A stretch of 62,264 nt of DNA from Escherichia coli (GCF_003334305.1 NZ_QOWS01000027.1); one strand, 5' to 3'. Positions 1 through 34,511 are shown, counted from the first letter of the stretch. Notes: generated by a model not told the origin, from the sequence alone. A program made the numbers and translations.

Positions 1-66
1 TATGATCCAGAAATAGTCTTCTTTGCAGACAAACTGGACGCTTACACAGATCAGCCAGAGTTTCGC

Positions 67-291
67 ATGATCGCTCCTGATGGCACTACGTTTGTTACTC
101 GTTTCTCCAGTGCCGAACTAAATTATGTGACACGCTGGATCCTTTATAACGGCGAGCAACAGGTAGCCGCCTTTGCATTACCTGCAACCTGTCGGCCTGA
201 GGGGTATCTTGCCGCGCAACGTAATGGAACGCTGATTCAGGTTGCACCGCAGCAAACGCGCACTTTTACAGTCACCACAGGAATTGAATAA
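67..291 (+). CDS. Short ORF of unknown function; may be the 3' end of a gene that begins before the window
   Basis: 74-aa ORF from the track, followed by a hairpin plus T-run at ~313-345; no family recognised. Confidence 0.25.
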   Translation: MIAPDGTTFVTRFSSAELNYVTRWILYNGEQQVAAFALPATCRPEGYLAAQRNGTLIQVAPQQTRTFTVTTGIE

Positions 292-312
292 CCACTCAAG
301 GCCTGAACAGCG

Positions 313-345
313 GCGCGCTTATCGTTAAGGTAAGCGCGTTTTTTT
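313..345 (+). terminator. Putative rho-independent terminator
   Basis: GC-rich inverted repeat gcgcgctta...taagcgcg followed by TTTTTTT. Confidence 0.5.
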
Positions 346-831
346 ACGCGCCAGAACAAGACTATGATAGCGTTGCCCTTATAGACGATCACATTATCGT
401 CCACTCCGACTTTGCGCAACTACAGTAGAGTGGTGTACTCCGCGGCTTTTTTGAGGATCTCAACTTCCATGTTTTTTTACCCAGCAAGAGCTGTAACTCT
501 TTTATTTTTTATAGCGGCAGCCAGTTCTGAGGCAGGAACAACATCCTCTCCGGCAGCAACAGCAGTGAGACTTCCTTCCTGGTATTGTTTTTTCCACTTA
601 AACAACAGACTGGGCTGAATACCATGCAAATGCACCACATGGGACACCGTCATGCCAGGCTCCGTTGTCTGCTGAGTAATGGCAATTTTTTTTCTGAGGA
701 GTTTTACGTTTACGAAGCTCCTGCCCCAGCAAAGTTCCAGTTATATCAAAATTAGAACTAGTGTTAGACATATATCCAAGCCTATCTCTTATTTTAAGAT
801 ACATCCACTGTCTGGCGTTTCAAGGGGCGGC

Positions 832-1209
832 TCAAGTTTTTTCAGACAGTTGAACTAGTATACCAATACATTCTTGTTCAGCATCAATGATACATGCTTG
901 GTATGTCGGAAAGAAAACAGATGCTTGTTTTACGATATATCCACAGTCATAATATTGATACCATTTCCAGCCTTTTTCCTGAATGTAGGAAATATGTAGA
1001 AAAAGTGGCAAGACTGATTCGTCTGAGTACCCCTGTTTTTTAGCATTTTTAATGCATAACAATTGCGAATTATATGCGTTATCTGATTGAGAAATAAGAT
1101 ATCCATTTTTCTCATGACAATACCACCTCCATTTATTGTCATCAGTTTTATAAAATTTCCATATTAATCTCTGATTGCCAGATATCTTATAAATCATAAT
1201 TTGCTCCAC
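832..1209 (-). CDS. Hypothetical protein (possibly DUF1508/YegP-like)
   Basis: 125-aa ORF in an AT-rich segment; KFYKTDDNKWRWY...NG motif loosely resembles YegP-type repeats; weak. Confidence 0.3.
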   Translation of the reverse strand: MEQIMIYKISGNQRLIWKFYKTDDNKWRWYCHEKNGYLISQSDNAYNSQLLCIKNAKKQGYSDESVLPLFLHISYIQEKGWKWYQYYDCGYIVKQASVFFPTYQACIIDAEQECIGILVQLSEKT

Positions 1210-1239
1210 TCCCCAGGGAAATGGCCCTGGGGAAGGTAA

Positions 1240-2604
1240 TCAGTGTTCTTTTATATATGCGGCTCTGTGACGTTCAAGTTCAATTGCACCACGATGTGAT
1301 AACCAGCAAAAAATGATGCAACAAATAATACCGCAGCCAAGAAGATAAAATCCGCCATGCCAGCCAATATGATCGACCATAATACCAAACAGGCTGGTGC
1401 CCAGAGATGCACCGAAGATATAGCTCATAAAACCACGTAAACCTACCGCGGAGCCAACAGCAAAGCTGGGCACGATCTCCATAGTCTGAACAGAAGCCAG
1501 AAATTGTGGAACGTAAATCAGACAACCAACAATGGCAGCAAAAATTGTCACCATAAACAGTGATTCACTTTTCCAGTAGCCAATCAGGCAAATGAAAATC
1601 AGCGCCATACAAATCATCGCCAATGGCATACGACGCCCTTTAAACAGTTTGTCTGACAACCAACCGGCAAGTAGCGTGGAAGGGATTGCGGCCCATTCAA
1701 AAAATAAAAACGCGACGCTCATTTGTTCTTTAGAAAAATGTTTCACCGTCAGCAGATAAATAGGCAACCAGCTAATCATCCCGAAGCGTACCATGTATAC
1801 AAATACGTCAACCAGTGAGACATACCAGGCATTTTTATTGCGTAATACATAAGTGCAGAAAATCTGAAAGGCACTCATGTTTTCTGGTGCTTTTACCGTC
1901 TGTCGGGTATTCAGGACGACTTTTTCTTCCGGCATCATCTCTTCCAGAGAGGGTAGACCTTCCTGACGTGGGGAACCTTTACCGAGAATCAGCACAATTA
2001 CCGCAAAAACGATGGCCACGCAGGCCGGAACGATATAGCTCGCACTTTGCCAGTGCTCGCTGCCGAGTAGGGCAAAAGCGGCACCAACAATGGGTGCAAC
2101 AATACCACCACCGACGTTATGAGAGATATTCCAGAAAGCACCAACCCGACCACGCTCCCGGCGAGGGAACCAGTTAGCAATAGTGATGAAAGAAGGACCA
2201 ACGCCCATTCCCTGGAAAAGACCATTCAGAATAACCAATACCGCAAAAATCCAGAATGCGGTGCTGAATCCCAGGCCAACGTTAACGATGGCACATAACA
2301 CCAGCCCACACGCCATAAAGACTTTCGGACTGGCTTTATCGGCAAGGCTACTCATCACTCCTTTGCTGATACCATAGGCGATAAGCATACAGCTACTCAG
2401 TACGCCAATTTGTGTGGCGCTGAGATCTAATTGCTCTTTAAGATAAGGCGTCGATAAGGTGAAATTATTACGCACGATATAGTATGCAAGATACCCCAGA
2501 AATACACTAAGTAACGCCTGCATACGATAGCGACGATATGTCACCTGAATTTTCTCCGCCGGAACACTATCCGCCGCTTGCCCCGTTTTAAATATTGATA
2601 ACAT
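1240..2604 (-). CDS. pgtP: MFS organophosphate:phosphate antiporter, PgtP-like (phosphoglycerate transporter family)
   Basis: 454-aa multi-TM protein with the UhpT/GlpT/PgtP-type N-terminus; ATG start at 2604; divergent from a binding-protein/sensor-kinase/regulator operon, as in Salmonella pgtP-pgtCBA. Confidence 0.65.
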   Translation of the reverse strand: MLSIFKTGQAADSVPAEKIQVTYRRYRMQALLSVFLGYLAYYIVRNNFTLSTPYLKEQLDLSATQIGVLSSCMLIAYGISKGVMSSLADKASPKVFMACGLVLCAIVNVGLGFSTAFWIFAVLVILNGLFQGMGVGPSFITIANWFPRRERGRVGAFWNISHNVGGGIVAPIVGAAFALLGSEHWQSASYIVPACVAIVFAVIVLILGKGSPRQEGLPSLEEMMPEEKVVLNTRQTVKAPENMSAFQIFCTYVLRNKNAWYVSLVDVFVYMVRFGMISWLPIYLLTVKHFSKEQMSVAFLFFEWAAIPSTLLAGWLSDKLFKGRRMPLAMICMALIFICLIGYWKSESLFMVTIFAAIVGCLIYVPQFLASVQTMEIVPSFAVGSAVGLRGFMSYIFGASLGTSLFGIMVDHIGWHGGFYLLGCGIICCIIFCWLSHRGAIELERHRAAYIKEH

Positions 2605-32949: not shown

Positions 32950-32968
32950 CCCGGGCTGCCAGCCCGGG
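32950..32968 (-). terminator. Putative terminator hairpin downstream of the integrase gene
   Basis: Palindrome cccgggctg-c-cagcccggg 8 bp past the int stop. Confidence 0.45.
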
Positions 32969-32975
32969 ATGATTA

Positions 32976-34238
32976 CTATTTTAATGGATTGTTAATCTTT
33001 GCATATTCAAACGGGCTGATACATTGTTCTCTGTTCGCATCCAGAAAATCTGCCCACCACTGTAGCATCAGTCGCCGTTCTTCCAGATGTTCTGCTTTAT
33101 GGATATACGCAGCACGTACACCATTACGCTCCTGATGGCTCATCTGACGTTCCACAGCATCGCGGGACCACAAACCTGATTCAATCAATGCACTGCACGC
33201 CATCGCCCGGAATCCATGGCCACAGACTTCCTGGGTTGTGTCATACCCCATCACCCTCAGGGCTTTATTTACAGTATTTTCACTGATTGGTTTACGCGGG
33301 TCATGTGCTCCCGTAAAGATCAGACCATTTTCACCAGCCCATGTCTGTAGTTCTGCCAGTATGGCTACAGCCTGTTTGCTGAGTGGCACAAGATGTGGTG
33401 TTCGCATCTTGGAGCCCCGGTGTGAGAATTTTACGCCTGGCAGAGGTTTGCGTTCGGCTGGAATAGTCCACATGGCATTGTCAATATCAATTTCAGACCA
33501 GCGGGCATATCTGAGTTCACTGGAGCGAATAAAAACCAGTAAATTCAGCATAACTGCCAGTCGGGTGACAGGCTGACCTTTATAACTGTCAATGCGCGAC
33601 AGAAGTTCAGGCAGGCGTGAAAGATCCAGCGCAGGGCGATGTTGGCGTTTTACTGTGGTCAATGCACCAGCCATATCCAGAGCCGGGTTATATCTGATGA
33701 TGCCAGACTGTACGGCGTAACGCATTACAGCAGATATTCTTTGCTGCAGACGACTGGCGATTTCATAAATTTGTTTTGCTTCTGCAGCACGAACAGGGAT
33801 AAGCAGGTCCGGGGTATTGAGTGTTGTGATATCCCGGTTGCCGATAAAGGGGAAAACGTGTGTCTCGAGGCTTTTGAGTACTTTATCGCTGTGTGATTGT
33901 GCCCATTGTTTATTACTGGCATGCCAGCGTCGTGCAATATGTTCAAAAGAGAGCTGTAAATCAGGGACAACTTTTTTAACTCTTTTCTGTTCGCAAGGGT
34001 CAATCCCCTCTGAAATCAGTTTTCGGGCCTCATCCCGTTTTGTACGAGCTTCGGAGAGAGAAACTTCTGGATACACACCAAGTGCCAGAGTCTTCTCCTT
34101 ACCCAGAATACGATAACGGAGACGCCAGTAACGGGAACCATTAGGATGAACCAGCAGGAACATGCCGGCCCCGTCAGTGAGTTTATAAGCCTTGTCAGTG
34201 GGCTTTGCAGCCCGGATTTTTGCGTCAGTCAGTGCCAT
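32976..34238 (-). CDS. int: P4-type tyrosine integrase (tRNA-associated genomic island integrase)
   Basis: 420 aa; N-terminal MALTDAKIRAAKP...YWRLRYR block typical of P4-like integrases; C-terminal catalytic region with R...HxxR...Y; ~200 bp from pheV. Confidence 0.9.
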   Translation of the reverse strand: MALTDAKIRAAKPTDKAYKLTDGAGMFLLVHPNGSRYWRLRYRILGKEKTLALGVYPEVSLSEARTKRDEARKLISEGIDPCEQKRVKKVVPDLQLSFEHIARRWHASNKQWAQSHSDKVLKSLETHVFPFIGNRDITTLNTPDLLIPVRAAEAKQIYEIASRLQQRISAVMRYAVQSGIIRYNPALDMAGALTTVKRQHRPALDLSRLPELLSRIDSYKGQPVTRLAVMLNLLVFIRSSELRYARWSEIDIDNAMWTIPAERKPLPGVKFSHRGSKMRTPHLVPLSKQAVAILAELQTWAGENGLIFTGAHDPRKPISENTVNKALRVMGYDTTQEVCGHGFRAMACSALIESGLWSRDAVERQMSHQERNGVRAAYIHKAEHLEERRLMLQWWADFLDANREQCISPFEYAKINNPLK

Positions 34239-34393
34239 AGTTCAGCCTTCTGAATGCGTTAAAGAGGGCACAAATTCTGTCGAACTGGGGTATACCCGCA
34301 ATTATACCCACACAATGAGGTTGATGTGGGGAGAATTTGGTTGAGTTCGGTAGAATTGATTTGGAGGAAGAACACTTAAATCATGGTGTTCTG

Positions 34394-34425
34394 AAACGAA
34401 AAACGGACCTCCGTGGAGGTCCGTT
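34394..34425 (-). terminator. Rho-independent terminator of pheV
   Basis: Hairpin aacggacctcc-gtgg-aggtccgtt followed by a T-run on the minus strand, immediately 3' of the tRNA. Confidence 0.65.
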
Positions 34426-34435
34426 GATATGAATT

Positions 34436-34511
34436 TGGTGCCCGGACTCGGAATCGAACCAAGGACACGGGGATTTTCAATCCCCTGCTCTACCGACTGA
34501 GCTATCCGGGC
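34436..34511 (-). tRNA. pheV: tRNA-Phe (GAA anticodon)
   Basis: Reverse complement reads GCCCGGATAGCTCAGTCGGTAGAGCAGGGGATTGAAAATCCCCGTGTCCTTGGTTCGATTCCGAGTCCGGGCACCA, matching E. coli tRNA-Phe. Confidence 0.97.

Follow-up and report, generated by a model that had tools for sequence, protein, structure and literature searches.

Genomic islands integrated at the tRNA-Phe gene pheV of Escherichia coli (GI-pheV islands) are already described, as are their imperfect 23-bp attachment (att) repeats, their Pix, pgt and deoK modules and the Druantia type I defence system. Islands of this family have a P4-type integrase gene (intP4) beside pheV and modules separated by insertion sequences (ISs), including yee/CP4-44-type modules. 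Their flanking repeats are 23 or 19 bp long (Nhu et al. 2024, PLoS Genet, PMC11537424). In strain 536, 536_GI-pheV is the att-bounded 48.8-kb part of pathogenicity island (PAI) V536; here and in strain S79EC, pix and pgtABCP lie downstream of intP4 and the island has the same imperfect 23-bp repeat (PMC11537424). We have analysed a stretch of E. coli DNA of 62,264 nucleotides (NZ_QOWS01000027.1), referred to in its entirety as the window. We are highly confident that positions 1-34435 are part of a 46.1-kb GI-pheV island, a close relative of 536_GI-pheV that has been remodelled in modules.

The second group of related elements is P4 and the P4-like satellites, in which the interval from psu to int is a hotspot for defence genes (Rousset et al. 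2022, PMC9122126). These satellites and the present island have in common the integrase family, a tRNA 3' end as target, attP-type arm repeats and variable, defence-rich cargo just past the 3' end of int. They differ in scale and site: P4 is 11.6 kb long and targets leuX, whereas the island is 46 kb long and occupies pheV.

The island is of an ordinary, well-described kind, a P4-type-integrase insertion at pheV in the sequence of an annotated RefSeq genome. All the defining features of GI-pheV were found (site, intP4, distal attR and modular content with ISs), and the insertion site and imperfect 23-bp attR are those of 536_GI-pheV and S79EC_GI-pheV. The information added here consists of base-exact junctions, the full size, the relationship with 536_GI-pheV and the nature of an insert that carries Druantia.

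For reference we used 5,426 complete E. coli genomes. Segments 1-20000, 20001-34435 and 37300-62264 of the window each have one perfect full-length match, in E. coli A7 (NZ_CP028767.1), where the whole window is contiguous (3935077-3997340, reverse strand). Sequence beyond the window was taken from this genome (locus L001); a window position equals the L001 position minus 15000. Strain MG1655 served as the K-12 reference and locus L004 represents the GI-pheV of strain 536.

Island boundaries

According to the original prediction, core synteny (speC-yqgA-pheV) ends at the tRNA, at position 34436. The features concerned are:

34436-34511, minus strand: tRNA-Phe (GAA), pheV (the single tRNA reported by ARAGORN; Rfam agrees)
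34436-34458, minus strand: att core (attL), the 23 nt at the 3' end of pheV, in agreement with the published GI-pheV att
34617-35324: yqgA, protein 100% identical to K-12
35722-37857: speC, protein 98% identical to K-12

All three genes were confirmed and homology with K-12 breaks exactly at 34436. In MG1655 the order is speC-yqgA-pheV-yghD, with a gap of 148 bp between pheV and yghD. The window has no K-12 counterpart below 34436; in K-12, pheV directly adjoins yghD.

The other end lies in the A7 genome, some 11.7 kb beyond position 1 of the window, and is marked by a distal repeat, TGGTGCCGGACTCGGAATCGAA (L001 3296-3317), situated in intergenic sequence with a DUF4942 gene on one side and yghD on the other. 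Apart from the deletion of one C, this repeat equals the 3' end of pheV (22 of 23 nt). Read on the opposite strand, it gives the published attR, TTCGATTCCGAGTCCGG-CACCA, which is listed for 536, ED1a, H10407, 55989 and many other strains (Nhu et al. 2024, PMC11537424). BLAST places the edges of K-12 homology at L001 3317, the final base of the repeat, and at L001 49436, equivalent to window 34436. The inserted DNA is therefore L001 3318-49435, or 46,118 bp. In a three-way alignment, the distal flank of A7, one copy of the repeat and the remainder of the tRNA add up to the K-12 site. Window 1-34435 makes up three quarters of the island, on the side of the integrase, and the distal end is outside the window.

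From the window alone, no second pheV 3' end had been seen in the intergenic regions scanned, and it had been concluded that the island probably continues past position 1 and exceeds 34 kb. Each of these statements holds. Searches of the window with the 23-mer and with the 22-nt variant, allowing up to 3 mismatches, gave nothing besides the tRNA, and the 23-mer, under the same limit, matched the tRNA itself and nothing else across L001. The distal repeat escaped this mismatch-only search of L001 because of its 1-nt deletion; it was found by reading the intergenic region proximal to yghD. Its apparent absence is thus explained both by its location outside the window and by the deletion. A 15-mer att search of the window and L001, with up to 2 mismatches, gave a single extra match, at 15014-15028. 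We rejected this as a chance match: 0.15 such matches are expected, it has no att flanks and it lies in coding sequence (a pilin gene).

The island is also rare. With presence defined as at least 80% of a segment, window 1-20000 is found in 141 of the 5,426 genomes, window 20001-34435 in 63 and the EAL-IS3-druE junction in 46. For the flanking core (37300-62264) the count is 5,207. The 1-34 kb region is therefore not syntenic in most E. coli. These figures also bear on the view that the region was part of the ancestral E. coli genome and has been deleted from K-12 and the majority of strains. That several hosts scattered over the phylogeny carry it favours this view, and nothing further does; the view is effectively refuted by the precise empty site of K-12 (an intact tRNA followed by yghD), the tRNA 3'-end duplication bracketing the island, a prevalence of about 1-3% of complete genomes versus 96% for the adjacent core, the deviant GC content and the occurrence of the same block at pheU and leuX.

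Modules gained and lost relative to 536_GI-pheV

The island backbone comprises a yee/CP4-type module, a deoK-like operon, pgtPCBA, the Pix operon with an EAL gene, and int. In 536 the order from the tRNA outward is int, EAL, pix, an IS21 remnant, pgtA/B/C/P, a hypothetical gene, a transposase remnant, the deoK-like operon, an ilvN pseudogene and the yee module (DUF932, antirestriction, RadC, DUF987, YeeU, CbtA, DUF5983, DUF957 and DUF4942). The stretch from EAL through pix, the IS21 remnant, pgtABCP and the deoK-like operon to the ilvN pseudogene, together with the yee module, is collinear between the two strains with 97-99% nucleotide identity.

Relative to 536, the island has gained 15.6 kb beside int. 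Window 17328-32961, which includes most of an IS3 element, Druantia, ISEc18 and a phosphoethanolamine-transferase (ept) pseudogene, has no counterpart in 536, where nothing but remnants of ISs and a short piece of the ept 3' end occupies this position. On the int side, homology between A7 and 536 picks up again some 16 bp past the int stop codon. Retention of the ept 3'-end remnant in 536 indicates that ept was ancestrally next to int. The insert is composed as follows:

17112-18342, minus strand: IS3-family element, ends approximate (annotation, terminal similarity)
18473-18504, minus strand: GC-rich hairpin just downstream of the druE stop, with a 15-nt inverted repeat, 93% complementary
18513-29852, minus strand: Druantia type I operon druA-E (PADLOC type I models)
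18513-24023, minus strand: druE (PADLOC)
24020-25063, minus strand: druD (PADLOC)
25075-26958, minus strand: druC (PADLOC)
26970-28616, minus strand: druB (PADLOC)
28638-29852, minus strand: druA, identical to Swiss-Prot DRUA_ECOU4
30189-31208, plus strand: ISEc18 (IS481 family), 1,020 bp, with perfect 25-bp terminal inverted repeats
31210-32711, plus strand: ept pseudogene (alignment, annotation)

The IS3 element joins the pix and Druantia modules and its transposase (17153-18263) is produced through a programmed frameshift. Its ends were placed by local alignment with low confidence, and a repeat search gave no clear terminal inverted repeats. With the ends thus approximate, there is no target-site duplication, the flanking triplet being CTG on one side and CCC on the other. 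This is consistent with rearrangement mediated by an IS, or with recombination, where the pix and Druantia modules meet. The EAL-proximal end of the element survives as a remnant in 536. An Rfam match to isrN, an Hfq-binding small RNA, lies antisense within the transposase (17857-17999, plus strand; 149 bits against a threshold of 44).

DruA to DruE are all present, adjacent, co-oriented and full length relative to the PADLOC models, the weakest E-value being 6.6e-178. The hairpin behind druE is a probable operon terminator. The gene order is that of the Druantia I of E. coli UMEA 4076-1, the source of DRUA_ECOU4; DruA is identical and no difference was seen. It was reportedly the Druantia I of UMEA 4076-1 that Doron et al. 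tested in their experiments of 2018. In Enterobacter hormaechei a copy is found next to another integrase and an Eco47II-type restriction-modification system; its homology with the window extends for about 270 bp upstream of druA and then stops. This limit defines the Druantia cassette as roughly window 18470-30125.

ISEc18 had been thought to truncate ept. This is incorrect, since it is inserted 1 bp upstream of the ept ATG. The pseudogene departs from the intact allele of a pheU island through a +2 frameshift and through replacement of TGG by TGA. A C8 tract, GGGCCCCCCCCGGG, is also present close to the 5' end of ept (31237-31250) and could be slippage-prone; the intact allele reads CAATACACCCC, a 3-nt in-frame difference.

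A loss has occurred at the distal end. Between the ilvN pseudogene and DUF932, CFS3313, which has the same Druantia variant, carries about 22 kb that include Ag43, genes of a dynamin-family protein and a GTPase, and a small helix-turn-helix gene. A7 lacks these approximately 22 kb (about 18 kb by comparison with 536) and has a single IS3 instead (L001 8266-9613). The Ag43-type autotransporter module, present in 536 and CFS3313, is absent from the A7 island. The small helix-turn-helix gene of both these strains, which encodes a homologue of the P4 Vis excisionase (36-44% identity; Vis/AlpA type), is likewise missing from it. Relative to its nearest relatives the island has lost about 22 kb that include both genes. 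The distal arrangement of A7 was not found in any other complete genome.

The original prediction described the island as a mosaic integrated with a P4-type integrase at tRNA-Phe and listed a P4-like integrase, an ept pseudogene, an IS481 element, the dru operon, an IS3 element, a Pap/Pix-like fimbrial operon, an IS21 remnant and a pgt-like locus. All of these are present. Mosaicism is shown by the variation in module GC content, the IS elements at junctions and the differing prevalence of segments. GC content is 0.44 in the island part and 0.52 in the core part, and modules range from 0.34 (the EAL gene) through 0.40 (Druantia) up to 0.48. The junctions carry the IS21 remnant, IS3, ISEc18 and transposase remnants.

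Integration, mobility and other possible origins

The tRNA-proximal end of the island includes two further features:

32976-34238, minus strand: intP4, P4-type tyrosine integrase, 420 amino acids, apparently intact (Pfam)
34290-34309, plus strand: tandem repeat with a 12-bp period, GTATACCCgcaatTATACCC, a putative arm-type integrase site

The integrase has the Arm-DNA-bind_3, Phage_int_M and Phage_integrase domains (Pfam). Over 410 residues it shares 55% identity with P4 Int, including the catalytic pattern R..HxxR..H..Y, and it is 98% identical to the integrase of PAI V536 (536 GI-pheV). Its gene is 197 bp from the tRNA. Domain content and identity with P4 Int thus agree with the predicted integrase type. 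The motif TAYACCC-N5-TATACCC occurs just twice in 50 kb, once per island end (about 125 bp inside the tRNA-proximal end, at 34290-34309, and about 50 bp inside the distal end), with 0 copies expected by chance. These repeats resemble the annotated paired 12-bp arm repeats of P4 attP and are putative arm-type sites. Their pairing at both termini indicates that a single element accounts for the two ends.

The 3'-end duplication, the integrase family and published work lead us to infer site-specific integration. A circular element with a P4-type integrase would have undergone recombination between its attP and the final 23 nt of pheV, regenerating the tRNA and leaving a repeat at the far end, beside yghD. 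The comparisons show that IS elements, deletions and homologous recombination have since remodelled it in modules.

At present the island is probably stably fixed, or rarely excised. Its imperfect attR and the absence of a Vis/AlpA homologue of its own suggest that it is poorly excisable alone. For comparison, PAI V536 is reported to delete at frequencies of 1e-5 to 1e-6 through its own P4-like integrase and also through that of the leuX island, an example of cross-talk in strain 536 (PMC3202238, PMC4891358). No relaxase, type IV secretion or oriT function occurs among the 46 annotated features of the island, as judged from annotation with no dedicated profile search.

We saw no sequence evidence contradicting the interpretation as a single remodelled GI-pheV island. 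A number of points nevertheless weigh against parts of it. Integration is deduced from its scars rather than from an observed event. The Druantia copy would function in phage defence, judging from its sequence; DruA is identical to the reference protein, while the other four were recognised by profile models. The arm-type sites are predicted by analogy. Finally, an excisionase or integrase from another resident island could act in trans.

Two other origins must be considered. In the first, two or more islands would have integrated successively at pheV to give a tandem array. The heterogeneous GC content of the modules would be in keeping with this, and such an arrangement exists elsewhere: at locus L015 the int-ept-ISEc18-Druantia block is directly behind the DUF4942-ParD-ParE end of another island and an att-like remnant, TTTCATTCCGAGTCCGGGCACCA (1397-1419), with no full tRNA. 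L015 is a tandem island arrangement. For the A7 island, however, we consider a tandem array very unlikely. There is a single integrase in 46 kb, the mismatch searches described above (23-mer, 22-nt variant and 15-mer) gave no internal att copy, module junctions coincide with IS elements rather than att sites, and the backbone has the same order as in 536, where the island is single.

We regard as less likely still a decayed P4-like satellite or prophage that continues to depend on a helper phage for transfer. The identity of the integrase with P4 Int, the retention of a P4 Vis excisionase homologue by relatives, the position of the cargo on the same side of int as in the psu-int hotspot (PMC9122126) and the phage origin of GI-pheV suggested by Nhu et al. 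(PMC11537424) all point in this direction. Against it, Int alone of 13 P4 proteins was matched in the A7 island (tblastn, E<=1e-3), with no psu, sid, delta, alpha, epsilon, cI or vis, and 46 kb is far above the capacity of a P4 capsid.

Island cargo and its possible exchange beside int

The GI-pheV backbone in the window contains the following features, starting from position 1:

1-291, plus strand: 3' end of an aldose-1-epimerase gene, the last of the deoK-like operon (A7 annotation)
435-744, minus strand: transposase remnant (pseudogene), also in the 536 island (annotation)
832-1197, minus strand: hypothetical protein, 121 amino acids (annotation)
1240-2604, minus strand: pgtP, phosphoglycerate transporter (annotation)
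3003-7463, plus strand: pgtC, pgtB and pgtA, phosphoglycerate transport regulators (annotation)
7808-8676, plus strand: IS21 istA remnant, upstream of the pix regulatory region (annotation; same remnant in 536)
9106-9381, plus strand: pixB, PapB-family fimbrial regulator, identical to UniProt Q707J3 'PixB protein'
9426-9932, plus strand: Pix major pilin (annotation, NCBIfam)
10018-10605, plus strand: Pix PapH-like subunit (annotation, NCBIfam)
10726-13236, plus strand: Pix usher (annotation, NCBIfam)
13305-14036, plus strand: Pix chaperone (annotation, NCBIfam)
14073-14636, plus strand: Pix fibrillin-type subunit (annotation, NCBIfam)
14720-15238, plus strand: Pix minor subunit (annotation, NCBIfam)
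15261-16253, plus strand: putative Pix tip adhesin, 330 amino acids (annotation; weak MrpH_C match in Pfam)
16306-17088, plus strand: EAL-domain (cyclic-di-GMP phosphodiesterase-type) gene, end of the pix operon, conserved in 536 (NCBIfam)

The deoK-like operon encodes a DeoR regulator, a ribokinase-family kinase, a FucP-family permease and the epimerase, and all but the end of the epimerase gene lies before window position 1. Operons of the deoK type are known as pheV-island cargo (PMC6455142, PMC7545054). The 121-amino-acid protein has no significant match in Pfam or NCBIfam. The stretch from pgtC to pgtA is 99% identical in nucleotide sequence to that of 536.

Two of the Pix subunits are identical to UniProt Q707J5 and Q707J8. 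Part of the major pilin gene (9662-9881) is the sole stretch of the pix-pgt backbone to drop from the megablast alignment with 536. The pilin has 168 amino acids in A7 versus 177 in 536, and the rest of the pix operon is about 99% identical; the major pilin is an allelic variant. The products of 14073-14636 and 15261-16253 are labelled 'nuclease PIN' in many public records, which looks like a propagated misannotation. Taken together, the cargo would provide phage defence, adhesion and nutrient uptake as accessory functions.

Related loci were gathered by looking up the exact DruA sequence across assemblies. The int-ept-ISEc18-Druantia block was found at pheV, at pheU and behind the end of another island (L015, above). 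The ept-ISEc18-Druantia cargo also occurs at the tRNA-Leu gene leuX (for example, L008 1343-2876, with homology to window 27001-33293), and this context was the commonest among the long contigs read (13 of 28). In L008, nucleotide homology with the window begins in the middle of int, at window 33293. The integrase is chimeric: its first 315 or so codons are diverged and its last 105 or so residues are nearly identical, giving 69% protein identity overall. This implies exchange of the cargo through recombination inside int.

Other islands have different genes at this position. In the pheU island of WP5-S18-ESBL-09 (L003 21610-25125), MkoC of Mokosh type II (1,696 bits) is located between int and an intact ept. 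Another pheU island, that of SCU-125 (L016 10491-11907), has a TPR protein and a 76-amino-acid open reading frame in the same int-ept slot. Neither has a PADLOC match; they may represent an uncharacterised defence candidate.

It is possible, and we propose it only tentatively, that the few kilobases past the 3' end of intP4 form a swappable, defence-rich slot that is shared across tRNA sites and exchanged via the conserved 3' part of int. If so, the slot would correspond, on the scale of an island, to the psu-int defence hotspot known from P4-like satellites, and might descend from it.

Our literature search found no paper combining pheV and Druantia, nor Druantia and UMEA 4076-1, and the words 'Druantia' and 'defense' each have 0 occurrences in the text of Nhu et al. 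2024 (PMC11537424). The A7 island places a Druantia I system with a reference-identical DruA on an island of virulence type, in a slot that holds other defence genes in sister islands. The presence of Druantia on such an island links the evolution of pathogenicity islands with the traffic of defence systems.

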